From assembly GCA_963804955.1 (NCBI GenBank), contig CAWDSQ010000006.1, forward strand, positions 1-42,287: a stretch of 42,287 bases of DNA, written 5' to 3'. Below the pieces are notes generated by a model, which saw only the letters and a program-made list of their open reading frames with translations, did not search any database and was not told where the DNA came from. This document shows positions 979 through 38,072 of this stretch, one piece after another. The translations under genes and the position numbers were made by a program. The first letter of the stretch is position 1. Each line of letters begins with the position of its first letter. Source of the DNA: an uncultured delta proteobacterium. GTDB taxonomy: Bacteria > Desulfobacterota > WTBG01 > CAIYCZ01 > CAIRTM01.

Positions 979-1035
979 CTATAGGCTTTTAGTCTGTAGG
1001 CTGTAGGCTATTTAAGATCTGTAATAGACTGTAGG
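979..1035. repeat. Degenerate 7-bp tandem repeats (CTGTAGG/CTATAGG), 3' flank of four-helix-bundle gene 1
   Basis: ctataggc...ctgtaggctgtaggc...ctgtagg, the reverse complement of the array at 1441-1548. Confidence 0.75.
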
Positions 1036-1057
1036 TACATACAAGCTAAAAGCATAG

Positions 1058-1428
1058 TCACCTTAAATTCACGGCTACTTGCAGCATTGAGCGAACAAGC
1101 GCTCCTAAAACCTTTTTCACCTCGGACATATCGCTCACATTGTCTCAACGCCATGCCCATCGAGATAACCCAGCACGCTTTGACAAAGATAGCTGATAAT
1201 GAAGTTCGCGCAGAGATCCGAATGCTATTTCAAAAAATCGCACATACTCCACCTGGCTCTCACGGGCACAGCCCTCGACGATATTTGAGGGAACTGAAAC
1301 AGCCGCTCTCCTCATCTGAGAAGTCAATCCGTATATTTCCGACTTGGCGGAGAGGGAGTGGCATCGTATACTTGCACTGCGAGCTCGTCAGCAAGCTGAT
1401 AAGCTCTCAGTTTTGTATGGTCACGCAT
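1058..1428 (-). CDS. Four helix bundle protein (TIGR02436 / 23S rRNA intervening-sequence protein family), with apparent frameshifts
   Basis: MRDHTKLRAYQLADELAVQVY...EIYGLTSQMRRAAVSVPSNIVEGCARESQVEYVRFFEIAFGSLRELHYQL...EVKKVLGALVRS. The QxRRAAxSVPSNIxEG motif is the family signature. Confidence 0.88.
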
Positions 1429-1440
1429 AACCGCACTTCC

Positions 1441-1548
1441 TAATAGCCTAAATCCTACAGCCTATAGCCTATAGCCTACAGTCCTTATCTTAATCCTACA
1501 GCCTATAGCCTAACAGCCTACAGCCTACAGCCTAACACCCTACAGCCT
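1441..1548. repeat. 7-bp tandem repeat array (CCTACAG/CCTATAG, about a dozen imperfect units), 5' flank of four-helix-bundle gene 1
   Basis: cctacagcctatagcctatagcctacag...cctacagcctatagcctaacagcctacagcctacagcctaacaccctacagcc. Confidence 0.9.
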
Positions 1549-9159: not shown

Positions 9160-9160
9160 A

Positions 9161-9221
9161 AAGGTTCAAGGCTTTCTGTCTTAACCTTGAACATTGAACC
9201 TTGAACCTTGAACCTTGAACA
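9161..9221. repeat. Gene-less inverted 7-bp repeat site: AAGGTTCAAGG ... (AACCTTG)x5
   Basis: 9161-9171 aaggttcaagg is the reverse complement of the tandem array aaccttg aacattg aaccttg aaccttg aaccttg aaca at 9183-9221. Confidence 0.85.
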
Positions 9222-9240
9222 TGTTGCTCTGATACAAGCA

Positions 9241-9954: not shown

Positions 9955-11342
9955 GGCGCATACGGCTTTTCAGAATACTGCGCACCATCCGCACCGCGCT
10001 GAAGGCCCTGCGCCGCAACCCCATGCGCGCCGCCCTGACAGCCCTCGGCATCATTATCGGCGTGGCGGCAGTCATCATCATGATGGAAATCGGCAAGGGG
10101 TCATCGGCGGCCATTCAGCGGACCATCGCCAATATGGGCGCCAATAACCTGCTGATCCTGCCGGGCACGGCCGCAAGCGGCGGCGTGAGCTTCGGCGCGG
10201 GCAGCGTCATGACCCTCACCCCGCAGGACGCCGAAGCCATCCTCAAAGAGTGCCCGGCCGTGCGCAGCGCGGCGCCCGTGGTGCGCGCGCGCACGCAGGT
10301 AATTTATGAAAACAAAAACTGGGTGCCCGTTTTTATTTTCGGCACCACCACCGAGTATCTCGCCGTGCGGGAATGGACCGCCATGGCGCAGGGCGAGATG
10401 TTTACCGACAGCGATATCCGCAACGCGAGCAAGGTGTGCGTGCTCGGGCAGACGCTGGTGCGGGAGCTGTTCGGCGGCGCCTCGCCAATCGGCAAAGAAG
10501 TGCGCGTAAAAAATATCTCTTTCAAGGTGGTGGGCGTGCTCAGCGGCAAGGGCGCCAATATGATGGGCATGGACCAGGACGATATCCTGCTTGCTCCCTG
10601 GACCACCATCAAGTACCGGGTGACCGGCTCATCGGCAACCACGGCCAACCAGAGCAGCTCTTCTTCGGCAGCCTCAACCGGGGTGAACTCTCTCAATAAG
10701 CTCTATCCCAGCGACCAGCTCAACCTCTATCCGGTGCAGTCGGCCACGCAGCAGGCCAACACGCCGCTGCCGGTGCGGTTCACCAATGTCGACCAGATCC
10801 TGACCGCCGCGCAGTCCGGAGCCGAAATACCCCTGGCAATGCGGCAGATAACGCAGCTGCTGCGGGAGCGCCACCGTTTGAACCCGGGCGACCCCGATGA
10901 TTTCAACATTCGCGACATGACGGAAATGAGCAAAACTCTTTCATCCACGTCAACGCTTATGACCAACCTGCTGCTGAGCGTTGCCCTCATCTCCCTTGTT
11001 GTGGGCGGGGTGGGCATCATGAATATCATGCTCGTCTCGGTGACGGAGCGCACCCGCGAGATCGGCCTACGCATGGCAGTGGGCGCCCGTGCCCGCGACA
11101 TCATGCGGCAGTTTCTGGTGGAAGCCGTGGTCATGTGCCTGGCCGGCGGTGCTGTGGGCATTCTGCTCGGCTGCGGAAGCTCGTTCCTGATAACATTCAT
11201 GCTGCGCTGGCCCACGGAGACATCGCCTGCCGCCATCTTTTCATCGGTTATCGTTTCCGCCAGCGTCGGAATCATCTTCGGTTTCTACCCGGCATGGAAG
11301 GCCTCAAGGCTTGATCCTATAGAAGCATTGCGCTATGAATGA
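9951..11342 (+). CDS. MacB-type ABC transporter permease (FtsX domain)
   Basis: LTALGIIIGVAAVI, large periplasmic domain, GGVGIMNIMLVSVTERTREIGLRMAVGA, PAWKASRLDPIEALRYE; ATGA overlap with the ATPase gene. Confidence 0.95.
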   Translation: MRRIRLFRILRTIRTALKALRRNPMRAALTALGIIIGVAAVIIMMEIGKGSSAAIQRTIANMGANNLLILPGTAASGGVSFGAGSVMTLTPQDAEAILKECPAVRSAAPVVRARTQVIYENKNWVPVFIFGTTTEYLAVREWTAMAQGEMFTDSDIRNASKVCVLGQTLVRELFGGASPIGKEVRVKNISFKVVGVLSGKGANMMGMDQDDILLAPWTTIKYRVTGSSATTANQSSSSSAASTGVNSLNKLYPSDQLNLYPVQSATQQANTPLPVRFTNVDQILTAAQSGAEIPLAMRQITQLLRERHRLNPGDPDDFNIRDMTEMSKTLSSTSTLMTNLLLSVALISLVVGGVGIMNIMLVSVTERTREIGLRMAVGARARDIMRQFLVEAVVMCLAGGAVGILLGCGSSFLITFMLRWPTETSPAAIFSSVIVSASVGIIFGFYPAWKASRLDPIEALRYE

Positions 11343-12823
11343 AGCTCGATTTTTTCAAAAAAAACGGTATACGCCCATGCGCCTTATACAGACGGTCATT
11401 AGTGTTGTGCTTGTGCTGGCAGCAGCGGGCTGCGCTGTCGGGCCCGACTTCAAACAGCCCGACACAGAAACGCCTGCGGCGTGGTCAAGCCTTGACGCCT
11501 TCGGGAAGCCGCAGGCAAGCACGGCCATAGCCGGGCCCGCAGCCCTGGCCGCGTGGTGGTCCATATTCAATGACCCGGCCTTGACCGGCCTGGTGGAAAA
11601 AGCGCTGGCAGCAAATCTCGACCTGAAGATCGCCGAGGCGCGCGTGCGCCAGGCCCGAGCCGCCCGGGGCACGGCCTTTGCCGGCCTGTGGCCCTCGCTG
11701 AACAGCTCGGCATCCTACCTGCGCTCCCATGAAAGCTCCCCGGGGGCATCCGACACTGCCATGGGAACCGGCGCCACGGCGCCAGGCCAGGTGCGCACCG
11801 ACCTTTTTCAGGCGGGCCTTGACGCGGCCTGGGAGCTTGATATTTTCGGCGGCACGCGCCGCAGCATTGAAGCGGCCGATGCCGATCTGCTGGCCGCCGA
11901 AGACAATCGCCGCAGCGTACTGGTATCGCTTGCTGCCGAGGTGGGCACCACCTATATAAGCCTCCGGGGCTATCAGCAGCAGCTCGCCATAGCCCGTAAA
12001 AACCTTGCGTCCCAGCTGCGCACCGCCGGCATAACCCGCAAGCGCTACGAAGCAGGCTTTGCCAATGCCCTTGACACGGCCAATGCCGAAGCTCTGGCCG
12101 CATCCACCCAGTCGCAGATCCCGCTTCTTGAATCAGCCGAGCGGCAGGCAATCTACAGCCTGAGCGTGCTGCTTGCCCGCGAGCCGGCAGCGCTGCAGCT
12201 GGAGCTCTCTCCCGAGGCGCCGCTTCCGCAGGTGCCTCAGCAGGTAGCCGTGGGCGTGCCTTCCGAGCTTTTGCGGCGCCGGCCCGATGTGCGAAGTGCG
12301 GAGGCGCAGCTGCATGCCGCCACCGCCCGCGTCGGCGTGGCGGTTGCAGACTTCTTTCCCAGATTTTCACTGGCCGGATCATTCGGCCTGCGCGGCGATG
12401 AGTGGCAGACCCTCGGCAGCCGCAGACAATCATGTCTGGTCGGGCGGACCCGGGGTCACCTGGAATATTTTTGATGCGGGCCGCACAATCTCCAGCCTGA
12501 AGCTCCAGAAGGCAGTGCAGGACGAGACGCTTGCGGCCTATGAAAAAGCCGTGCTCGCGGCGCTCAAGGATGTCGACAGCGCCCTTGTTGCCTACGCCAA
12601 GGAGCAGGAGCACCTGACAGCCCTTACCGATGCCGTAACAAACGGCCGCAAGGCCGTCGACCTTTCCCTGCAGCTCTACAGGGTCGGGCGCAACGATTAC
12701 CTGAGCGTGCTCATTGCCCAGCGCGCCCTGTTTGCCTATGAGGACGCATGGGTCATAAGCTCGCGCAACCTGGACACTACCCTGATCGCCCTGTACAAGG
12801 CCCTCGGCGGCGGCTGGGAATAA
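11335..12823 (+). CDS. TolC/NodT-family outer-membrane efflux lipoprotein (frameshift near 12415; alternative start 11377)
   Basis: Lipobox AAAGC-AVGPDF, WELDIFG, PSELLRRRPDVR, C-terminal LYKALGGGW in the second frame. Confidence 0.92.
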
Positions 12824-12828
12824 AAAAA

Positions 12829-12916
12829 CCGTTTCTGCCGTTTCAATAGTTTCAACAGTTTCAGTGATTCAAACGGCTGAAAAATCAAAACGGTTGGAGC
12901 TGTAGAAACGATTTTC
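12829..12916. repeat. 9-bp degenerate repeats (NNGTTTCAR, then inverted YTGAAACNG), 5' flank of four-helix-bundle gene 2
   Basis: ccgtttctg ccgtttcaa tagtttcaa cagtttcag tgattcaaa cggctgaaa ... aaaacggttggag ... gaaacg. Confidence 0.8.
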
Positions 12917-12927
12917 AGAGGGAATAT

Positions 12928-13317
12928 ATGAATATCAAAAAATTTGAAGATCTTGAAATCTGGAAACAAGCCCGCCAACTGGCAAATAATATTTACAACT
13001 TAAGTAAGACGGATAAATTCTCTAAAGACTTCGGCTTGCGCGATCAGATTCGCAGAGCTTCGGTCTCCATTTTGAGCAACATCGCTGAAGGATATGAGCG
13101 TGATGGTAATCAGGAGCTTATGCAATTCCTGTCTATTGCAAAAGGATCCTGCGGCGAAGTCCGCTCTCAGCTGTATATCGCAGGCGATCAGGGCTATATT
13201 TCAAAAGATGATTGCGAGCAGATGATTGATACATGCAAAAAGCTCTCTATCATGCTTCATAAATTCATCGAATATCTCAAAACCGCACCATATAAAGGCA
13301 ATAAATATAAAAAATAG
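12928..13317 (+). CDS. Four helix bundle protein (TIGR02436 / 23S rRNA IVP family)
   Basis: MNIKKFEDLEIWKQARQL...FSKDFGLRDQIRRASVSILSNIAEGYER...FLSIAKGSCGEVRSQLY; visibly more AT-rich than its neighbours. Confidence 0.95.
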   Translation: MNIKKFEDLEIWKQARQLANNIYNLSKTDKFSKDFGLRDQIRRASVSILSNIAEGYERDGNQELMQFLSIAKGSCGEVRSQLYIAGDQGYISKDDCEQMIDTCKKLSIMLHKFIEYLKTAPYKGNKYKK

Positions 13318-13376
13318 TTTCAGCAGTCCCAATAATTCAAACGACTGAAACAGCTGAAACATTGAAACGGCTGAAA
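13315..13376. repeat. 9-bp degenerate repeats, 3' flank of four-helix-bundle gene 2
   Basis: tagtttcag cagtcccaa taattcaaa cgactgaaa cagctgaaa cattgaaa cggctgaaa. Confidence 0.8.
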
Positions 13377-13378
13377 AA

Positions 13379-13783
13379 ATGTCTGATTTCATACCCGAAC
13401 CGCCTGCTGCATACACCTATGAGCTTCCCGGGGGATGGAGCGTGCTTGCGGGCAAAACCGATGAAGACAATGACCGGCTGAGCATAAAAATCGCCGCGCC
13501 GCAGGACTGGTGGTTCCATGTGCGCGGCATGCCCGGCAGCCATGTGCTGCTGCGGGCGCACGAAACAGGCCGGGAGCCCGATGCAGCAACGCTCAAGGCC
13601 GCAGCTGCCATTGCGGCATATCACAGCAAGGCCCGCGGCGGCGGCATAGTAGCTGTTTCCTGCACCATGGCCCGCTATGTAACCAAGCCCCGGGGCGCAA
13701 AGCCCGGCACCGTCTCCATTCGCAAAGAGCAGGTGCTGAAGGTCCGGCCGGGCCTGCCTGAGCGCACGGAAAAAACAGATTAA
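13379..13783 (+). CDS. Stand-alone NFACT RNA-binding (DUF814) domain protein
   Basis: VLAGKTDEDNDRLS, DWWFHVRGMPGSHV, AAAIAAYHSKAR, VTKPRGAKPGTV. Confidence 0.9.
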   Translation: MSDFIPEPPAAYTYELPGGWSVLAGKTDEDNDRLSIKIAAPQDWWFHVRGMPGSHVLLRAHETGREPDAATLKAAAAIAAYHSKARGGGIVAVSCTMARYVTKPRGAKPGTVSIRKEQVLKVRPGLPERTEKTD

Positions 13784-13803
13784 AGCAAAAAATGGGAGGC
13801 GCT

Positions 13804-14445
13804 ATGTCTTCTGATGATCAGGCTCTGAACGAATGGGCAGCAAATATTCTCAGGCAGGAGAACCGCTATTGCCAGGAGGTGACCATCACGAAGGTGCATG
13901 GCTCCTGCCCGTACGGACACCGTGAGGGCGAAACCTTTCGGGTTACGGCCATGCATGCCGGCGGCCTCTGCGGCTCGCTGCTCACGGCTATTTTCCCGTC
14001 CGTGGTGGCTCAGCACTATGGCGGCTCCGTGCTCTGGGAAACCGAAGCAGGCGCGTTTACCGGCCGCTGCCCTGAAGGCGGTACAGTCGAGGTGGCGGTC
14101 CAGCGCCTTGACAACCCCGAACCGGCACTCTATAAAAAGGAGTACCTGCCCGGGAATATGGCCGGGTGCGGATTATGTGTGCCTGATACGAACCGCCTCG
14201 TGGTCGAGGTAACGGATATTGCAGGCAGCTGTTATTACGGCCACAGCACGGGCGACAGAATTGAGGTAGACCCCTTTCATGTGAACGGCATGTGCTGCCT
14301 GCTCTACAACCAGCTCTATCCGTATATACATGTGCTGCTGTCGGGCGCGACACCTCCCTGGGCAACTATGCCGCACAGCATTGCCGGAGAATGCCCGGAT
14401 ATTTTTAACCGGCTGAGTTTCCGGATGTCGCTGGAAAAAAGATAG
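13804..14445 (+). CDS. Tandem TIGR04076-like Cys/His metal-binding domain protein
   Basis: GGAGG RBS before ATG 13804. Two copies of the pattern GSC-x-YGH-xx-G...C...P...CP[ED] (GSCPYGHREGETF...CPEG and GSCYYGHSTGDRI...CPDIFN). Confidence 0.7.
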   Translation: MSSDDQALNEWAANILRQENRYCQEVTITKVHGSCPYGHREGETFRVTAMHAGGLCGSLLTAIFPSVVAQHYGGSVLWETEAGAFTGRCPEGGTVEVAVQRLDNPEPALYKKEYLPGNMAGCGLCVPDTNRLVVEVTDIAGSCYYGHSTGDRIEVDPFHVNGMCCLLYNQLYPYIHVLLSGATPPWATMPHSIAGECPDIFNRLSFRMSLEKR

Positions 14446-27587: not shown

Positions 27588-29708
27588 CTACAGCGCGCAC
27601 ACCGCCTCGCACACGGGCTGGTCGTCGCCGCCGCAGCCGGGGTCTGCGTCGCACACATCCCCTGCGCCGTCGCTGTCGGCATCATGCTGATAGCCGTTGC
27701 ACAGGGCCGGGCAGTTATCAACGGCATCGGCATAAAAGTCATGGTCAGAGTCAGTCTGCCCCTCGCACAGAGACTGCCCGCAGCCGCCTCCGCAGCCGGG
27801 GGTGGTATCGCACACATCGCCAATGCCGTCGTCATCTGCATCGAGCTGCTGCGGGTTGGCAATAACCGGGCAGTTGTCAAGTTCATTTAAAATACCGTCA
27901 GTGTCTGTATCGCATGATGTTTCGCACACAGGCTGCCCCTCGCCCCCGCAGCCGGGTTCTGCATCGCAGACATCGCCTGTGCCGTCAGCGTCGGCATCGA
28001 GCTGATCGGCATTGCACGTTGGCGGGGCAGTTGTCTATCGCGTCTCTCACAAAGTCTCCGTCGGTATCAGCCTGCCCCTCGCATACAGCCTGGCCGCAAC
28101 CGCCGCCGCAGCCGGGGGTTGTGTCGCAGACATCGCCTATGCCGTCAGTATCGGCATCAAGCTGCAGAGGGTTGGCAATGGCAGGGCAGTTGTCAAGTTG
28201 CATCAGGAACTACAATCACTATCACATCATCGGTAAACACCGCCGTAGGATAGCCATACCACGGATTAGTAAATCCTGTGGCTCCGGCACGATAGTACAC
28301 TTTAAAACCGCTTGCGCAGCCACCGAAAACAGCGCTTGCCATTGTCGGTGCATTACCGTAAAAATAGGCGGCAGCAAGACTTGAGCAACCGGAAAACCCC
28401 CACTTCCCAATACTTGTAACACTGCCCGGAATGCTAATGCTGTTCAAACCGGTGCAATAGCCAAAAGCTTCCTGCCCGAGACTTGTAACATTGTTCGAAA
28501 TGATCGCATTGGTCAAGCCTGAGCAATAGGCAAACGCAGCCTGTTCAATTCTGGTAACGCTGTTCGGGATGGTTACGCTGGTCAAAACGGAACATCCCAT
28601 AAACATGTAAGAATTAATGCTCGTAACGCTGTTCGAAATGCGCACGCTGGTTAACCCTGCGCACCAGGCAAAAGCGGCGGTTCCAATACTGGTAACACTG
28701 TCGGGAATGGTCAAACTGGTAAAACCGCAACCTTGAAATGCCTGTACCCCAATACTCATAACGCTGTTTGGGATTATAATGCTGGTCAAGCCTGTGCAAC
28801 CCTGAAATGCCATATACCCAATGCTTGTAACACTGCCCGGTATGGTAGCGCCGGTCAAGCTGCTGTTGTTCAAAAAAACCTGATCACCAATACTTACTAC
28901 CGGCATGCCGTCAATCGTTTCTGGAATTACAACATCTCCGCCAGCACCATTGTATCCCGTGATTGTAATAGTGCCGTTGGATACAGTGTACGTAAAATCG
29001 CCTTCAGTTCCAACTGTAGTGGTGGTTGTGGTTGTAGAAGGCGGGGTAAACACCGCCGTAGGATAGCCATACCACGGATTGGTAAAACCGGTTGCTCCGG
29101 CAAGATAGTAAACTGTAAAGCCGTGTGCGGAGCCAACAAACACTACTGATTCCATTGTCGGGGCATTCCCGTAAAAATATGCGCTGGTCAATAGAGTGCC
29201 ATTACAAAATGCACCCTCCCCAATACTAGCAACGCTGCCAGGAATGGTTATGCTGGCCAGGCTGGTGCAGTAACTAAACGCATAAGGATCAATGCTCGTA
29301 ACGCCATTTTGTATTGTAACGCTCGCCAAGCTGGTGCAGCCTTGAAACGCATATATCCCAATGCTCGTAACGCTGCCCGGTATGGTCACGCTGGTCAAAC
29401 CGGTGCAACTTGTAAACGCCGTCATTCCAATGCTCGTAACGCTGTCCGGAATGGTCACGCTGGTCACGTTTGTGCAAGTTTGAAATGCACCAGCCCCAAG
29501 AAATACTCCGGTAATACTTACAACCGGCATGCCTTCAATTGTGGATGGAATGACAACAGCTCCGCCCGAACCGGTGTATTTGGTGATTGTGACCGTGTTG
29601 TCTGATACCGTGTAGGTAAAATCCCCCGATTGCTGGGCAAAGGCCGATGAAGACAGAAACACACAACCAATAACGGACAGCAATGAATAGCGATTTTCTG
29701 AAATGCAT
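27588..29708 (-). CDS. Secreted BspA-type LRR (LRR_5) protein with 2 LRR modules and a Cys-rich TSP3-like tail (array gene 4; frameshifts)
   Basis: MHFRK... signal peptide ending [13 protein letters not shown] caps, [14 protein letters not shown] repeats, Thr-rich linker, [21 protein letters not shown] repeats, ends CEAVCAL*. Confidence 0.88.
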
Positions 29709-29816
29709 AAAATCCCTCCCCTTCTTTAAAATTCATTGCCTCTTGCAGGATGATGTATTGGTCATATTTTACCGTAGGGGCGGTTCGCGAACCGCCCCTG
29801 CAATTTCTTATACATG
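29709..29816. repeat. Conserved ~108-bp intergenic spacer, copy 1, with GTAG-type REP palindrome (29774-29800) and RBS
   Basis: Nearly identical to 34527-34635 and 36519-36625; contains GTAGGGGCGGTTCGCGAACCGCCCCT. Confidence 0.9.
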
Positions 29817-32800
29817 CTACAGCGCGCACACCGCCTCGCACACGGGCTGTCCGTCTGCCGCCGCAGCCCGGGTCTGCGTCGCACACATCCCCTGCGCCGT
29901 CGCTGTCGGCATCCTGCTGATAGGCATTGCACACCGCAGGGCAGTTATCAACGGCATCGGCATAAAAGTCATGGTCAGAGTCAGCCTGTCCCTCACAGAG
30001 AGACTGGCCGCAGCCGCCTCCGCACCCGGGGGTGCGTATCGCACACATCGCCTATGCCGTCGTCATCGGCATCGAGCTGCTGCGGGTTGGCAATAACCGG
30101 GCAGTTGTCAAGTTCATTTAAAATACCGTCATTGTCTGCATCGCATGATGTCTCGCACACAGGCTGCCCTTCTCCCCCGCAGCCGGGTTCTGCATCGCAG
30201 ACATCGCCTGTGCCGTCAGTGTCGGCATCTAGCTGAGACACATTGCACATGGCCGGGCAGTTGTCTATCGCGTCTCTCACAAAGTCTCCGTCGGTGTCAA
30301 CCTCCTGTTCGCATACCGCCTGGCCGCAGCCCCCGCCGCAGCCGGGGGTTTCGTCGCATACATCGCCTGTGCCGTCAGTATCGGCATCAAGCTGCAGCGG
30401 GTTGGCAATGGCCGGGCAGTTGTCTGAGGCATCGGGTATGCCGTCGCCGTCTGTGTCACTAGGCGCTGCTGTTGTGGTGGTTGTAGCAGGCGGGGTAAAT
30501 ACCGCCGTAGGGCAGAAATACCACGGATTGGTAAACCCGGTTGCCCCGGCAAGATAGTAAACAGTAAAGCCGCTTGCGCAGTTGGTTAAAAGCATCGTTC
30601 CCCATTGTTGGAGCATTCCCGTAAAAATATGCTGCGACCAAACTGATGCAACCGTCAAATGCTCGACCTTGAATGCTCGTAACGCTGTCGGGTATGGTCA
30701 CGCTGGTCAACCCGGTACAGTCTAGTAAACGCCAGATCCCCAATGCTCGTAACGCTGTTTGGTATGGTCACGCTTGTCAAACCTGTACAATCTTTAAATG
30801 CCCCCATAAAAATGCTTGTAACACCGGCAGGTATTGTAAAAACAGCTGACCTTGCGATAGGATATTGAATAAGCGTTGTGGTGGCTTTATTATACAGCAC
30901 ACCATCCTGACTGCTGTAGGCGGTATTGCCTGCATCAACCTCTATACTGATCAAACTGGTGCAACTAAAAAACGGCCCGGCTACGACCGCTAAAAGATTT
31001 AGATACTTTAGGGTAGTAACACCGCTCCCCAGATACACGCTGGTCAAACCGGTGCAACCTGAAAAAGATAGAATTCCAATGCTTGTAACACTATTCGGTA
31101 TGGTCACGCTGGTAAGACCGGTGCAGCCTGCAAACGCCTGACCCCCAATGCTCGTAACACTGTTTGGTATGGTCACGCTGGTCAAACCGGTGCAGCCGTA
31201 AAACGCACCCCAGGGCTGGCTCATCAAAGAGTCCTGCCCCGCAATCCTTACCACCGGCATGCTGTTTATGGTATCGGGGATGACAACCGCGCCCCCCGCG
31301 CCCGTATAGCCGACGATGGTGACCTGACTGTTTGAAACCGTGTAGGTAAAATCCCCAGCGACGCCAACTGTCGTGGTGGTTGTGGGTTGTGAAGTTGTAG
31401 TAGTGGTCGGCACCACAGATGTCGTTGTTGTGACCGGCGCTATACTTGTCGTTGTATTAAGTGCTGTTGTCGTGGTGGTGGTCGTTGTGTCGTCAGGCGG
31501 ACGGTTGTGGTCGTTGTTGTCACGACAGCCTTACAGATGACCATAGGACGGGCATTCGGCCAGCGTGGATCGGTCTCAAATTTAGAGTAACTATAAATAT
31601 CCGACTCATCGACAATAAACCAATTCGCGTCGCTCGCAGCACATCCATCCACTCGTATTATCCAGTTCCTATACCAGTAATTATTGTACATATTGAGGCT
31701 CAACTTTGCGTTCCACGGGGCAGGGGGTGCTACCCATGATGTCTGGCTTGACCATGCCGTTGAAAAAACATAACAGCCCCAGGCATAGCTTGTGCAGGCA
31801 GAATCAAAGGGATGATTTGCAGATACGAGCCTTCCATATGTCTTGTTCATCAAGAGGCTGCCAGGTGTCGATTCCGCCCCAGCTTAAATTAGTGCAGTAA
31901 TTTCTGGTCTCGGTGCGGACAGGATGGAAAGCCGGGGTAACAGCGTTAAAACCAATATCGGCATAGGTCTTTAACAATGTGCTCGTCCCGTCATTATTCA
32001 TCATGGCTATTTGATTGCCATCAGCGGCGGCGTCATTGTAATCGCAGTCACCATCCTGATTGCTGCAGCCGGCCTGAATATAATCAAACTTCCCGTCTCC
32101 ATCATTATCAATATCTACAGGCACGGTGGTGGTTGTAGGTGATGCAGTAGATGTCGTCGTTGTTGTTAGTATCGTTGTTGTGGTTGTCCCGGAGGGTAAA
32201 CACCGCGAAGGATAGCACGTAATGAACGTAGGACACCAGCTGGGACTGGCAAACCCGGCGGCTCCTGCAAGATAGTACACGGTAAAATTGCTTGCACAGT
32301 GCAAAAAGATATCAGACCAAGGTACTTCCGGCGCATTTCCGTAAAAATATGCGGCAGCCAAAGCGGTGCAGCCTTGAAAAGCAGATGCCCAAATGTTCGT
32401 AACGCTGGCAGGAATATTAATTCTGGTTAAAGCGGTACAGTCTTGAAAAGCAGATGCCCCAATGCTCGTAACACTGCCCGGGATGCTTACGCTGGCCAAA
32501 CCGGAGCAAAGCGTAAAAGCTCTATCCCCAATGCTCTGAACGCCGTTCATTATAATAACGGTGGTCAAGCCGCTGCAACTTTGAAACGAGGAAATCCCAA
32601 GGCTGGTAACACTGCCCGGGATGCTTACGCTAGTCAAGCCGGCGCACCCGGCAAAAGCATACCACCCGATACTGGTAACGCTGTCGGGAATGGTCAAACT
32701 GGTCAGGCCGCAACCTTGAAACGCCATATCTTCAATGCTTGTTACGCTGCCCGGTATGGTCACGCCTGTCAGGCCGCTTTTATTAAAAAAAGCCTGATAT

Positions 32801-34526
32801 CCAATGCTCACTACCGGCATGCCGTCTATGGTATCTGGAATTACAACCGATCCGCCGGCACCGGTATAGCCGATGATGGTGACCCTGTTGTTTCTTGCCG
32901 AATACGTAAGTTTTCCATATGAAATAACCGTTGTCGTCGTGCTTGTAGATGTCGGGGTGAACACTGCTGTAGGATCGCCATTCCAGGGATTGGTAAACCC
33001 GGTTGCTCCTGCAAGATAGTACACGGTGAAGCCGCTTGCGCTATTGCAAAATGGACTTTTACGATCAGACGCCCATGGGTATGGACAGCAATCATAATAT
33101 ACTATCTGCGGCGCATTCCCCAAAAAAAATGCGGAGGTCAAAAGAGCGCAATCAAGAAACGAGCCTGCGTTGTATGCATAACAACTCATGCCACACTGAC
33201 GCTGCGAACCATACATTCTCCTGACGCTGGCCGGAATAGTAACGCTGGTCAAACCGGTGCAGTTATAGAAAGCTTCCGCCCCAATGCTCGTAACACCGTC
33301 CGGGATAGTAAAACTTCCCGACTTACCGGGAGGATACATAATAAAGCGTGTCTCGCCTTGGTTATAAAGCACACCATCCTGACTGCTATAGCTTGGGTTA
33401 CCCGGATCGACATTTATGCTGGTCAAACCAGTGCAACCATAAAACGCAGCAGTCAATGGTACCACCAATGGTCGTAACGCTGACGGGTATGGTCATGCTG
33501 GTCAAACCGGTGCAACCATAGAAATGCAGAATCCCCAATGGTCGTAACACCGACCATAATGGTCACGCTGGTCAAACCGGTGCAGCCATAAAACGCAGCA
33601 TTGTCAATTATGGTAACGCTCTCCGGTATGGTTACGCTGGTCAAGCCAGTGCAGTAGTCAAACGCGCCTCCCCCAATACTCGTAACACTGTTCGGGATGG
33701 TAATGTGCGTAATGCTTGTTTTTTCATGAAACGCATGACTGCCAATGCTGACTACCGGCAGACCTTCTATCGTATCTGGAATTACAACCGCTCCGCCTGC
33801 ACCGGTATAGCCGGTGATGGTGACCGTGTTGTCTATTACCGTGTAGGTAAAATCCCCGTATACAATAACTGTCGACGTCGTTGTACTTGGTCTGGTCGTA
33901 GTGGTAGTCGGCGGCTGTGTGGTTGTAGTGGATGAAGTTGTAGTCGGGTCAAACACCGCCGTAGGATAGCCATACCACGGATTGGTAAACCCCGTTGCTT
34001 CGGCAACATAGTAAACGGTAAAGCCGCTTGCGCAGTTTAAAAAAACGTTTGCTCCCATAGTCGGCGCATTGCCGTAAAAATATGCGCGTGCCAACTTGTT
34101 GCAACCAAAAAACACCTGAACCCCAATGCTTATGGAGCTGCCGTATATGAACACAGTGTTCAATCCGTTGCACCAGCCAAACGCGCCATCCCCGATGCTT
34201 GTAACGCTGGAAGGAATAATCAGACTGGTCAAACCGGTGCAAAGGGCGAACGCATAAGACCCAATGCTTGTAACGCTGCCTGGGATAATGATACCGGTAA
34301 TGCCTGATTTACTTTGAAAAGCATTATTGCCGATACTGACTACAGGCATACCGTCTATGGTATCTGGGATTACAACCGCTCCGCCGGCGCCGGTATAGCC
34401 GGTGATGGTGACCTCGCTGCCTGATACTGTGTAGGTAAAATCCCCCCATTGTTCTGCAAAGGCAGATGAGCACAAAAACACACAACTAATGACTGACAGC
34501 AAAAATATCGATTTTCTGAAATGCAT
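29817..34526 (-). CDS. Large secreted BspA-type LRR protein (~1570 aa if frames are joined): 4 LRR modules, an internal non-LRR domain and a Cys-rich TSP3-like tail (array gene 3)
   Basis: ORF pieces 33453-34526, 31804-33468, 31440-31853, 30655-31416, 29993-30658 and the tail join through LRR or Thr-rich sequence with no internal signal peptide. One signal peptide [10 protein letters not shown]...SSAFA; ends CEAVCAL*. Confidence 0.8.
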
Positions 34527-34635
34527 AGAACCCCTCCCCTTCTTTAAAATTAATTGCCTCTTGCAGGATGATGTATGTGGTCATATTTTACCATAGGGGC
34601 GGTTCGCGAACCGCCCCTGCAATTTCTTATACATG
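34527..34635. repeat. Conserved intergenic spacer, copy 2 (REP palindrome 34593-34619)
   Basis: Nearly identical to copies 1 and 3. Confidence 0.9.
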
Positions 34636-36518
34636 CTACAGCGCGCACACCGCCTCGCACACGGGCTGTTCGCTGCCGCCGCAGCCCGGGTCTGCGTCGC
34701 ACACATCCCCTGCGCCGTCGCTGTCGGCATCCTGCTGATAGGCATTGCACCCCGCAGGACAGTTATCGATATTATCAGGAGTAAAATCATGGTCGGAGTC
34801 AGCCTGTCCCTCACACAATGTCTGGCCGCAGCCGCCTCCGCAGCCGGGGGTGCATCGCACACATCTCCTATGCCATCAGTATCTGCATCAAGCTGCAGGG
34901 GGTTTGCAATAACCGGGCAGTTGTCAAGTTCATTTAAAATACCGTCATTGTCCGTATCGCAAGATGTTTCGCACACAGGCTGCCCTTCTCCCCCGCAGCC
35001 GGGTTCTGCGTCGCAGACATCCCCTGTGCCGTCACTGTCGGCATCCTGCTGGTTCACATTGCAAACAGCGGGGCAGTTGTCTACTGCGTCTCTGACAAAG
35101 TCTCCGTCGGTGTCAACCTCCTGTTCACATACCGCCTGGCCGCACCCACCGCCGCAGCCGGGGGTTTCATCGCACACATCGCCTGTGCCGTCAGTATCTG
35201 CATCAAGCTGCAGTGGGTTGGCAATGCCCAGGCAGTTGTCAACTGCATCATCAACGCCGTCACCATCAGCATCATTAAAGGCAAGCTTCGCGACAAAGGC
35301 ATCACTGCTCCCCGCAAGCGGATTTATCGGGCTGCCCCAGGTTGCATTGCTCGTCCCCGTCACATACACATTACCAGTCCCGTCTACGGCTGTGCCATTA
35401 GCAGCATCACTACCAGTTGCTGACCCCATAAACATGTTCCACTGGCGGCTGCCGCTGCTGTCAATCTTCGCCACAAAGGCATCACTTCCTCCTGCAAACG
35501 GATATATCGGGCTGCCCCAGGTTGCACTGCTACCCCCCGTCACATACACAGTGCCAGACCCGTCTGCGGCTATGCCACTGCCCCAATCACCGCCAGTTGC
35601 TGACCCCATAAACGTGTTCCACAGGCGGTTGCCGCTGCTGTCAAACTTTGCCACAAAGGCATCTTCGCCTCCTGCATACGGATGTATCGGGTTACCCCAG
35701 GTTGCACTGCTACCCCCCGTCACATACACATTTCCGGACCCGTCTACGGCTATGCCATTAGCAGAATCATCACCGGTTGCTGACCCCATATCCGTGCTCC
35801 ACAGGCCGTTGCCGTTGCTGTCAAACTTTGTCACAAAGGCATCACCAATGATCTGCCCCGTCAAATACACATTGCCAGACCCGTCTACGGCTATGCCTTC
35901 AACATAATCTGTTTCTGTGCTGGGGCCCCAACCGAAAGCTATGATCCAGAGGGCGTTGCCGCTGGTAGTAAACTTTGTCAAAAATAAGCTCGTGCCACCC
36001 GGACCACCTCTCTCCCCCACGACATACACATTGCCAGACCCGTCTACGGCTATGCCTTCAGGAATATCAAAGGGGCTTCCAATCCAAGACTTAGTCCAGA
36101 GGCTGTTGCCGCTGCTGTCAAACTTTGCCACAAAGGTTTCGGTGTATCTATACGTTGGGGGAACGAATGTATACCACGTCACATACACATTGCCAGACCC
36201 GTCTACGGCTATGCCAATGCCTTGACCAGCAAACATGTGCCAGACCAGGTTGCCGCTGCTGTCAAACTTTGCCACAAAACCACCTAAGGTTCCATGTATC
36301 GGGCTGCCCCAGGTTTCACTGCTACGCCCCGTCACATAGATATTGCCAGACCCGTCTGCGGTTGTGGCATAAGCACTATCACTACCAGTTGCTGAACCCA
36401 TAAACGTGCTCCAGGTCATGGTTACGGCCTGCGCCTCCGCCTTCTGTATACATATGAAGCTGATGAGCACCAGGGAAACAATGACTGACAGTAGAACTAC
36501 CTGTTTTCTGAAGTGCAT
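34636..36518 (-). CDS. Secreted SBBP (seven-bladed beta-propeller) repeat protein with Cys-rich TSP3-like tail (array gene 2; frameshift near 34855)
   Basis: MHFRKQVVLL...AEA signal, about 7 repeats of GIAVDGSGNVYVTG...DAFVAKFDSSG..W, then [15 protein letters not shown] repeats; ends CEAVCAL*. Confidence 0.88.
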
Positions 36519-36625
36519 AGAACCCCTCCCCTTCTTTAAAAAATTGTCTCTTGCAGGGCGATTTATTTGGTCATATTTTACCGTAGGGGCGGTTCGTGAA
36601 CCGCCCCTGCAATTTCTTATACATG
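36519..36625. repeat. Conserved intergenic spacer, copy 3 (REP palindrome 36583-36609)
   Basis: Nearly identical to copies 1 and 2. Confidence 0.9.
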
Positions 36626-38072
36626 CTACAGCGCGCACACCTGCTCGCACACGGGCTGGCCATCAGCGCCGCAGCCAGGGTCCGGGTCGCACACATCGCC
36701 TGTGCCGTCAGTATCGGCATCAAGCTGATAGCTGTTGCACAGGGCCGGGCAGTTGTCAGCGGCATCCTGCATACCGTCTCTGTCCGTATCCACCTGCCCC
36801 TCGCAGAAAACCTGACCGCAGCCGCCGCAGCCCGGTGCACTGTCGCACACATCCCCTATCACGTCAGTATCGGCATCAAGCTGCAGGGGGTTGGCATTGT
36901 CGGGCAGTTGTCAACAACATCATAAATACCATCACTGTCCGTATCGCATGACTGCTCGCAGGCAGGCTGCCCCTCGCCCCCGCAGCCGGGGTCTGCGTCG
37001 CAGACATCGCCTGTGCCGTCAGTATCGGCATCGAGCTGAGACACATTACACAGGGCCGGGCAGTTATCAATCGCGTCTCTTACATAGTCTCCGTCAGTGT
37101 CAGACTGCCCCTCGCATACAGCCTGCCCGCAGCCGCCTCCGCAACCGGGGGTTTCATCGCATACATCGCCTATACCGTCAGTATCGGCATCGAGCTGAAA
37201 CGGGTTGGCAATGGTCGGGCAGTTGTCAAGTGCATCAGGGTACATATCACTATCAACATCAGTAAAAACCGCCGCAGCGAAGCAGATTAACGAATCCATG
37301 CCATAATAGCACCAGGGATTTGAAAACCCTGTGGCTCCGGCAAGATAGTAAATGCCTACACCGCTATTCCAATCAAAAGGATTAAAGATGTTGACGGCGA
37401 ATTGCCGTAAAAATAGGCGCCCAAATGCGAACACCCACCAAACGCAAAGGAGTCAATAAACATAACGCCTGCAGGAAAAATCACGCTGGTCAAACCGGCG
37501 CAGCCCCTAAACGCTTCCGCACCAATCTGCGTAACGCTGCCAGGGATGGCAAAACCGCCGATCCTTCCGCCCGGAAATTGAATAAGCTTTGTTTGTGATT
37601 TATCGTAAAGCACTCCATCATGACTGCTGAAGTTTGGATTATTCGCATCAACATCTATACGAGTCAAGCCAGTGCAATTAGAAAACGGAGGAAATGGATT
37701 GTAGATGGGTATCGGCCACCCCGAATACAAAGCACTCCCCATGCTCGCAACGCTGCTCGGGATGGTCACGGTGGTCAAACCGGTGCATCCCATAAATGCG
37801 TCATTGCCAATGCTCATTACGCTGTTCGGGATGGCTATGCTGGTAATGGCTGATTTTGCATAAAAGGCCTGTGCCCCAATGCTGACTACCGGCATGCCTG
37901 CTATGGTATCGGGAATTACAACTGCGCCCCCCGCGCCCGTATAGCCGGTGATGGTGACCTCGCTGCCTGATACTGTGTAGGTAAAATCCCCGGATTGCAG
38001 GGCAAAGGCAGATGAGCACAGAAACACACAGCCAATCAAGCACAGCAAGAATATTGATTTTCTGGAATGCAT
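36626..38072 (-). CDS. Secreted BspA-type LRR protein with 1 LRR module and a Cys-rich TSP3-like tail (array gene 1; frameshifts)
   Basis: [10 protein letters not shown]...SSAFA signal with [20 protein letters not shown] cap, LRR_5 repeats, DGVLYDK insert, TSP3-like repeats; ends CEQVCAL*. Confidence 0.88.

Follow-up and report, generated by a model that had tools for sequence, protein, structure and literature searches.

A four-helix-bundle gene enclosed by complementary 9-nt repeat arrays in a bacterial efflux operon: an intervening-sequence-like cassette, gained and lost among congeners, whose arms may be cognate to its own protein

Genes of the PF05635/TIGR02436 family are among the commonest small bacterial genes of unknown function and are usually annotated and then ignored; intergenic tandem heptanucleotide repeats are an equally old puzzle. 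The two meet in a 42,287-nt contig from an uncultured delta proteobacterium (CAWDSQ010000006.1, positions 1 to 42,287 of the forward strand; hereafter the window), where a gene for a 129-amino-acid (aa) four-helix-bundle protein lies between arrays of 9-nt repeats, in the gap between a TolC-type efflux gene and an NFACT-R gene. What kind of element is this gene with its repeats, and does the repeat unit, or word, have anything to do with the protein? We took advantage of congeneric genomes, of PF05635 loci from the same class and from other phyla, and of the other arrays of the same genome to examine this locus, called copy 2 here since the window holds another, copy 1. Congeners either have the cassette or lack it as a block, and its arms, complementary to each other on the two sides of the gene, can close a stem round the open reading frame (ORF) or fold locally; the same design surrounds most PF05635 relatives in several phyla, and the repeat word is inherited and conserved with the protein clade. 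The reading that we favour, and to which we give an even chance of being right, is that the region is a cassette of the intervening sequence (IVS) type, gained and lost, lying in sense inside host transcripts and carrying arms that are cognate to its own protein.

[quoted passage not shown] These scores, far above the cut-offs, bear out the first-pass annotation, made from the sequence alone, which had placed a second family member between the TolC-type and NFACT-R genes. The nearest solved structure is 2GSC (XCC0516; E 1.1e-15), and the motif G..R...S...N..E, described as conserved among PF05635 proteins in passages of PMC3936711, is present as RRASVSILSNIAEG, aligned with the equivalent stretch of 2GSC. 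The gene is the sole intact ORF of more than 80 aa inside the cassette, no recombinase is encoded among the cassette ORFs, and the TolC-type gene, the cassette and NFACT-R all lie on the + strand. The G+C content is 39.5% in the cargo gene and 37.5-37.7% in its flanks, compared with 63.9% in tolC and 62.0% in NFACT-R, which agrees with the earlier remark that the gene is more AT-rich than its neighbours. A scan of 12000-14200 with Rfam found no rRNA and no RNA family, the only match being a chance one to a miRNA at E 0.42, and PADLOC assigned no defence family. For 12300-13900, a search of RNA runs listed none that contains the stretch. The cassette is thus not an insertion into helix 9, 25 or 45 of 23S rRNA, but sits between two protein-coding genes.

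Beginning five bases past the tolC stop codon, the outer 5' arm (12829..12866, + strand) holds four tandem 9-nt units (12829-12864) that are pyrimidine-rich on the coding strand (CCGTTTCAA type). It is followed by an inner 5' segment of degenerate, purine-rich 9-nt units of the AAACGG type (12867..12915, +; inverted pairs I2, I4 and I8) and by a short putative leader with a Shine-Dalgarno-like GAGGG ahead of the start codon (12916..12927, +). After the stop codon a short pyrimidine-rich segment (13318..13338, +) makes up the 5' half of a local 3' hairpin (I17), and the outer 3' arm (13339..13378, +), with four purine-rich units of 9, 9, 8 and 9 nt at 13339-13373 (AAACGRCTG type), reaches the NFACT-R start codon. 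The segments were delimited by direct reading; for the two outer arms, Tandem Repeats Finder (TRF) also reports period 9, at 12840-12863 (2.7 copies) and 13345-13376 (3.7 copies), so that the 9-bp repeats first noticed by eye are present on both sides. Each flank had also been described as an inverted array in itself, and each alone does fold into a hairpin, of -30.7 kcal/mol on the 5' side (z -3.98) and -13.8 kcal/mol on the 3' side (z -2.85); in either case 1 of 200 shuffles did as well. The proposal that a hairpin site looks duplicated around the gene likewise stands. A 64-nt direct repeat (D1) brackets the gene, its left copy (12845..12908, +) being 72% identical to the right copy at 13313-13376, and a 19-nt word at 12867-12885 recurs at 13361-13380.

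The outer arrays are also reverse-complementary to each other (80-94%; inverted pairs I3, I5, I6 and I7). In the minimum-free-energy fold of the whole cassette, 12832-12865 pairs with approximately 13340-13376 around the ORF (z -4.53; none of 100 shuffles equalled it), and a closing stem of about 35 bp is possible around the whole ORF. The outer 5' arm has an alternative partner, 12867-12915, in a local hairpin. Copy 2 therefore possesses the stem-forming complementary termini enclosing an ORF that characterize an IVS.

The first-pass annotation had further anticipated that relatives might show the tolC/NFACT-R junction with one hairpin and no gene. NFACT-R orthologues were found in three of four congeners (G001, 92% identical; G002, 84%; G004, 89-90%). 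In G001 and G002 the tolC and NFACT-R genes are only about 30 nt apart and the PF05635 gene is absent, while G004 has a 75%-identical PF05635 gene with related 9-mers at the same junction. An otherwise conserved junction is thus polymorphic for presence and absence of the cassette, empty in G001 and G002 and occupied in G004. The anticipated gene-less junctions therefore exist, but not in the anticipated form, since G002 keeps a single copy of the 19-nt word and not a full hairpin, and the G001 junction is remodelled with no trace of the word. The bracketing 19-nt word and its single copy in G002 are compatible with duplication at the time of entry and also with deletion between direct repeats. 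Identities of the neighbouring genes suggest that G001 is the nearest relative, in which case at least one loss would have occurred. When the cassette of the present genome (G000) is compared with that of G004, the last three positions of the unit have changed concertedly on both flanks. Environmental contigs of about 95% identity cover the entire cassette, and one metagenome contig is without exactly 18 nt, or two units, in the 5' arm, at 12831. A candidate for a third empty allele, a contig (X4) that joins 12819 to 13397 through 51 other letters, was set aside as too weak, being a single 225-nt record with a depth of 2.5 and less than 95% likeness.

To place copy 2 within its family we relied on a survey of the same class, in which PF05635 was found in 33 of 41 genomes (132 matches). 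Relatives were drawn from 30 loci and from 75 of the 99 further matches outside G000, 24 partial matches being left out; of 120 profile matches, 94 were near full length with a stop codon, 93 of these were unique, and 90 had both flanks free of N. Scores for the upstream flank against the reverse-complemented downstream flank had a median of 15 in these 90 relatives compared with 7.5 in permuted pairs, and complementarity exceeded the 95th percentile of the permuted pairs in 66 and the 99th in 53. Direct, non-inverted similarity exceeded the 95th percentile in 19 of the 90. Tandem scores surpassed the 95th percentile of shuffles on at least one flank in 68/90 and on both in 33/90, and did so in 4 of 148 control windows taken 300-450 nt away; because the shuffle consisted of neighbour-preserving swaps, a partial dinucleotide shuffle that leaves arrays partly intact, this threshold is conservative. 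A period of 7 fitted best in 35 arrays on each side, one of 8 in 9 upstream and 8 downstream arrays, and one of 9 in 5 arrays on each side, and 79 of 85 PF05635 genes were below their surroundings in G+C. Beyond the class, 12 loci came from four genomes of other phyla (Calditrichaceae, Vecturithrix, Bacteroidales and Moduliflexus); arms were seen by eye in 10 of the 11 inspected, L208 being without visible arms, while L206 was not among the 11.

The survey also revealed a consistent arrangement of the arms with respect to the gene and its neighbours. Of 51 upstream arrays, 47 were rich in purines on the coding strand (G exceeded C in 45, C exceeded G in 5), and upstream arrays ended a median of 14 nt ahead of the start codon; downstream arrays were pyrimidine-rich in 35 of 50, starting a median of 10.5 nt past the stop codon. 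The neighbouring gene was co-oriented with the cargo gene at 70/74 loci on the downstream side and at 55/70 on the upstream side. At the 57 loci where both neighbours were clear, the patterns were (+,+) in 42, (-,+) in 12, (-,-) in 3 and (+,-) in none. A position in sense ahead of a co-oriented gene is what is expected of an element that lives in a transcript.

Some genomes carry many members of the family, such as G012 and G023 with 11 and 10 matches, and one region (G037:C23:61262-78528) has seven matches in 17 kb, a dense run of cassettes between successive genes.

For the relation between word and protein, two possibilities had been put forward at the outset: that structure defines the element, or that every subfamily of the protein comes with a cognate repeat. 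When the flank-unit labels (57 rows, 18 states) are placed on a tree of 90 PF05635 proteins, they require 23 changes, and each of 300 label shuffles needed at least 39, a result that favours the cognate repeat. The labels are single-linkage clusters of flank similarity, one of which (u0, 12 members) is heterogeneous, so the tree test understates how clean the labels are. Clustering of the repeat period on the tree is weak: it takes 16 changes, and the lowest number among 500 shuffles was 17. Since kinship alone could yield the tree result, independent evidence was sought. Among cross-genome pairs, an upstream-flank similarity above 13.5 was reached by 0-2% of those below 55% protein identity and by six of six above 75%, where the outer flanks were alike in four and unscorable in the other two; sharing of units as judged by eye was wider than this strict score indicates. 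An identical unit recurs with related proteins at non-syntenic sites across genomes and phyla. In 12 same-unit pairs with 54-80% amino-acid identity, 107 of 327 four-fold degenerate sites were identical, which is near saturation, and yet the arm word was kept. Pairs sharing a word across phyla include L205/L118, from Bacteroidales and Desulfobacterota (7/29 four-fold sites), and L203/L139 and L203/L133, from Calditrichaceae and Desulfobacterota. Within single genomes, a word was shared by 3 of 148 pairs of paralogues less than 45% identical and by 5 of 7 pairs at least 55% identical. Retention of the word near synonymous saturation, the pattern among paralogues and the concerted change between G000 and G004 lead us to argue that the arm word is probably under selection jointly with the protein, and the comparisons suggest, at the level of sequence, that each branch of the PF05635 family keeps its own repeat word.

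The genome itself (4.26 Mb in 36 contigs, 87% complete) contains four PF05635 genes, each of which is enclosed by short tandem arrays with a unit of its own: a GTAGGCT-type 7-mer in copy 1, the 9-mer in copy 2, a CAGAA-type 7-mer in contig C1 and a GTTCGGA-type 7-mer in contig C8. Copy 1 occupies 990..1548 on the - strand of the window, its broken gene (approximately 1106-1428) lying between period-7 arrays at 1445-1548, upstream on its own strand, and 990-1009, downstream. It is a pseudogene with two in-frame TGA codons or frameshifts, whose upstream array still has 14.7 copies. The first-pass annotation had singled out two cassettes with a common architecture and different repeats; both do exist, with period 7 and period 9, although the gene of copy 1 is broken, but this is no local peculiarity, the design being family-wide. 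Intact relatives of copy 1, 89% identical and with the identical word, occur in G001 and G004 (L157 and L153). The C8 cassette (C8:71757-72679), in which the C-terminus is frameshifted, lies between the two copies of an approximately 37-nt direct repeat. A G+C-rich terminator-like hairpin, the stop codon and the initial repeat units are included in this repeat, as though insertion had duplicated the 3' end of the host gene.

Arrays without a gene far outnumber these four cassettes. Genome-wide, three copies or more are present in 241 arrays whose period is 7 or 9, drawn from a handful of unit families; of the 179 with period 7, 130 lie outside long ORFs. In the inverted array pairs detected by TRF, only gaps of 423-565 nt hold a small ORF, which is always PF05635; the remaining pairs have gaps of 11-225 nt and no gene, apart from two with gaps of 1.3-1.4 kb that span ordinary genes. 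Pairing by TRF consensus yielded only 22 inverted pairs and misses arrays of mixed units, and for this reason it was replaced in our survey by local alignment of flanks with permuted-pair nulls. The copy-2 9-mer itself forms single gene-less hairpins at C18:1700-1785 and C30:293738-293810, and copy 2 looks like such a hairpin with a gene inside and the hairpin core duplicated. Within the same efflux operon, between the HlyD-type and ABC ATPase genes, lies a gene-less heptamer hairpin (9160..9222, +), with 5.4 copies of AACCTTG and an inverted partner (-17.8 kcal/mol, z -4.26); it is found at the equivalent junction in G001, G003 and G004 with varying numbers of units. We searched the whole genome for the family at E <=1 for coding remnants of PF05635 in gene-less hairpin loops and recovered the four genes only, which leaves recent internal deletion unsupported. 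In several gene-less CAGAA-type hairpins (C1:59680-59740, C1:61750-61830 and C5:225290-225350) the loop has a common small G+C-rich palindrome followed by CATGAATTTTT-like sequence, indicating that these are copies of one repeated element and not independent products of slippage. The same word families also form very long arrays, namely a 14-mer x29.7 at C34:8189-8604, a 7-mer x38.9 at C26:132453-132727 and a 7-mer x18.6 at C30:293982-294113, one of which sits at a contig end.

Under the favoured reading, the encoded protein would have its cognate nucleic-acid site in the arms. Its homology to XCC0516 suggests a pentamer, and we propose that about one subunit would be engaged per unit of 7-9 nt. 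The 2GSC entry has 5 chains, and a title cited in passages of PMC3936711 describes the protein as five four-helix bundles. Unit numbers hint in the same direction, in that period-7 arrays of the genome have a second length mode at 30-34 nt, downstream arms of the relatives have 4 or 5 units in 26/50 cases, and Geobacter arrays have five units. In the host transcript the closing stem may isolate the cassette and would be cut by RNase III, by analogy with ORF-bearing 23S rRNA IVS; a gene for RNase III is present in the genome. Gain and loss could proceed by recombination within the repeat arrays or hairpins, which would have duplicated the hairpin around the gene and, on loss, would leave a single repeat word.

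Several observations weigh against this reading. The arrays of the orthologous cassette in G004 are direct, not inverted, with no obvious closing stem. Copy 2 itself has its polarity reversed relative to the relatives, with a pyrimidine-rich outer 5' arm and a purine-rich outer 3' arm, and the usual polarity is confined to its inner partial copies. Unit sharing is not universal either, as just 17% of cross-genome, non-syntenic pairs at 55-65% protein identity and 31% at 65-75% exceed the similarity of 13.5. The median number of units in upstream arms is 6.7 and not 5. Two of the four PF05635 genes in the genome (copy 1 and C8) are damaged, yet their unit families persist at other loci (GTTNGGA, approximately 28; GTAGGCT, approximately 4), and the abundant gene-less families AAGGTTC, GATTCAA and the TGAACCAAT 9-mer have no cognate gene in the 87%-complete assembly, so that arrays need no resident cognate gene. 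Finally, the authors of a study on Coxiella conclude, in the passages of PMC4990558 cited here, that the homologous protein S23p is probably not made in vivo.

These points bear on what else the cassette could be. The arms might need only to pair, as an RNase III site or an insulating stem that the protein does not read, and the joint movement of gene and arms would then keep the word with the gene, the arrays being homogenised by slippage or gene conversion. The long-range stem (z -4.53), the sense placement in transcription units, the variation in unit number from strain to strain, the retention of arms by broken genes, the many related proteins that carry different words and the RNase III precedent of the 23S IVS (passages of PMC4990558) would all sit well with such a pure RNA-structure element. 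But a stem requires neither tandem units with a fixed period of 7-9 nor purine-rich 5' polarity (47/51), the direct arrays of the G004 orthologue cannot close one, and cross-phylum retention of a word near saturation of four-fold sites is hard to obtain from co-transfer alone; we therefore regard this explanation as unlikely. We rate it above the idea that the arrays are generic intergenic hairpins of the host, like the short tandem heptanucleotide repeats (STRR) found between cyanobacterial genes or the 'global regulator sites', which as landing pads or recombination hot spots would catch selfish PF05635 genes with no link between protein and word. The abundance of the arrays lends itself to this idea: most of the 241 lie outside long ORFs, gene-less loci far exceed the four cassettes, the gene-less hairpin at 9160-9222 keeps its place among congeners, gene-less hairpins of the copy-2 word exist, and similar paired heptanucleotide arrays without a gene are described for Geobacter metallireducens in passages of PMC2700814. 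Random capture, though, would not fix the orientation of the gene relative to arm polarity, would not yield covariation of clade and word across genomes and phyla, and would not give diverged paralogues of one genome different words, and the cross-phylum pairs point to a cassette that carries its own word into a new genome. This makes landing pads distinctly unlikely.

We also considered whether the gene could be the accessory protein Avd of a diversity-generating retroelement (DGR), the repeats then belonging to that system. PF05635 is indeed homologous to Avd (passages of PMC10053308), but no reverse transcriptase (RVT_1) was matched in the 87%-complete assembly at E <=0.001, the neighbours are tolC and NFACT-R, and the repeats within 12700-13500 are arrays of short units only, the repeat scan having revealed no pair of template and variable repeats in that interval, to which it was confined. 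The retroelement reading was rejected on the lack of a reverse transcriptase, and we consider it very improbable.

A broader view can be entertained, tentatively and as one that we think somewhat doubtful: PF05635 could be a large family whose members read tandem words of 7-9 nt, sequence-specifically, on single-stranded RNA or DNA, with a code for each clade, and orphan hairpins of heptamers or nonamers, found in the hundreds in this genome and in many other bacteria, could be targets of such cassettes in trans or their relics. Were this true, a class of repeats orphaned for 35 years would find its explanation in a protein family that has itself been an orphan for 30, the orphan hairpins accounted for would include STRR-type repeats, the Geobacter 'global regulator sites' and TAACTGA arrays, and gene-bearing cassettes and gene-less hairpins together would form a mobile, orthogonal post-transcriptional network. 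Copy 2 provides a clean natural experiment, since the junction is filled here and, with an orthologous cassette, in a sister species, is empty in two other congeners, and the genome also has gene-less hairpins built of the copy-2 word. Conservation of the word with the clade, arm polarity and sense placement turn 'function unknown' into a testable pairing of protein and word.

There is a practical side as well, as the arrays break short-read assemblies. PF05635 genes at contig ends are then to be expected; 16 of the 132 matches start less than 500 nt from the first base of the contig, and several retrieved stretches reach its far end. Among the host genes, the upstream one (11335..12823, +) encodes a TolC/OEP-type outer-membrane efflux protein with PF02321 matches on ORFs 11335-12474 and 12287-12823. 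It is split into these two overlapping frames in the assembly and is a single frame in G001. One base is absent at 12424-12427 in contigs from all four metagenome runs compared; the split may reflect a genuine frameshift or a mistake in the assembly of the window. The downstream gene (13379..13783, +) encodes an NFACT-R RNA-binding domain (PF05670, E 2.4e-10). The large tandem repeats with periods of 316, 69-70, 180 and 155 nt at 27607-37229 are probably within big genes for repetitive surface proteins and are unrelated to the cassette.

How does copy 2 compare with known systems? ORF-bearing IVS of 23S rRNA were reportedly described in Leptospira by Ralph and McClelland in 1993, and like such elements copy 2 is AT-richer than its host and sporadic in distribution, but it sits between protein-coding genes of an efflux operon and not in rRNA. 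In Coxiella burnetii, as described in passages of PMC4990558, an IVS in helix 45 of 23S rRNA has a 28-bp terminal stem, its cleavage by RNase III was shown experimentally, and two to three tandem heptamers, variable in number among strains, lie upstream of the S23p ORF. As far as those passages go, copy 2 shares with it the PF05635-family protein, an ORF enclosed by stem-forming complementary termini, and tandem repeats with variable copy number, heptamers there and 9-mers with an 18-nt variant here. The arms of copy 2 differ in that they are tandem units throughout, in their period (9, not 7) and in the duplication of the hairpin on both sides; cutting by RNase III, demonstrated for Coxiella, would be expected by analogy for copy 2.

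Avd of diversity-generating retroelements acts on nucleic acid together with a partner enzyme. The copy-2 gene differs from it in standing alone with its arms, with no reverse transcriptase in the assembly and no template or variable repeats seen in 12700-13500, although the two proteins share a homologous four-helix-bundle fold family according to passages of PMC10053308. PF05635 genes also occur within cas loci, one example lying between cmr3 and cmr2, according to passages of PMC3936711. As for the repeats, the cited passages report paired 'class 3' sites of five MTYCTGA units in G. metallireducens (PMC2700814) and TAACTGA repeats in Beggiatoaceae, cyanobacteria and Bacteroidetes (PMC4679880). 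Like the Geobacter arrays as described there, those of the present genome are short tandem 7-nt intergenic units, often in inverted pairs, and number hundreds, including a CAGAA-type family that resembles the Geobacter consensus. Here a gene lies inside the array pair; the cited passages of the Geobacter and Beggiatoaceae articles make no connection between arrays and PF05635 genes and are without the terms 'four helix', 'intervening sequence' or 'S23'. We found no published description of a class of repeat-armed PF05635 cassettes, the closest being the Coxiella 23S IVS. To these systems the locus adds a 9-mer variant with a duplicated hairpin, a set of occupied, empty and gene-less alleles, an argument from synonymous saturation, and counts of polarity and orientation, and it suggests that intervening elements can lie in operon transcripts as they do in rRNA.

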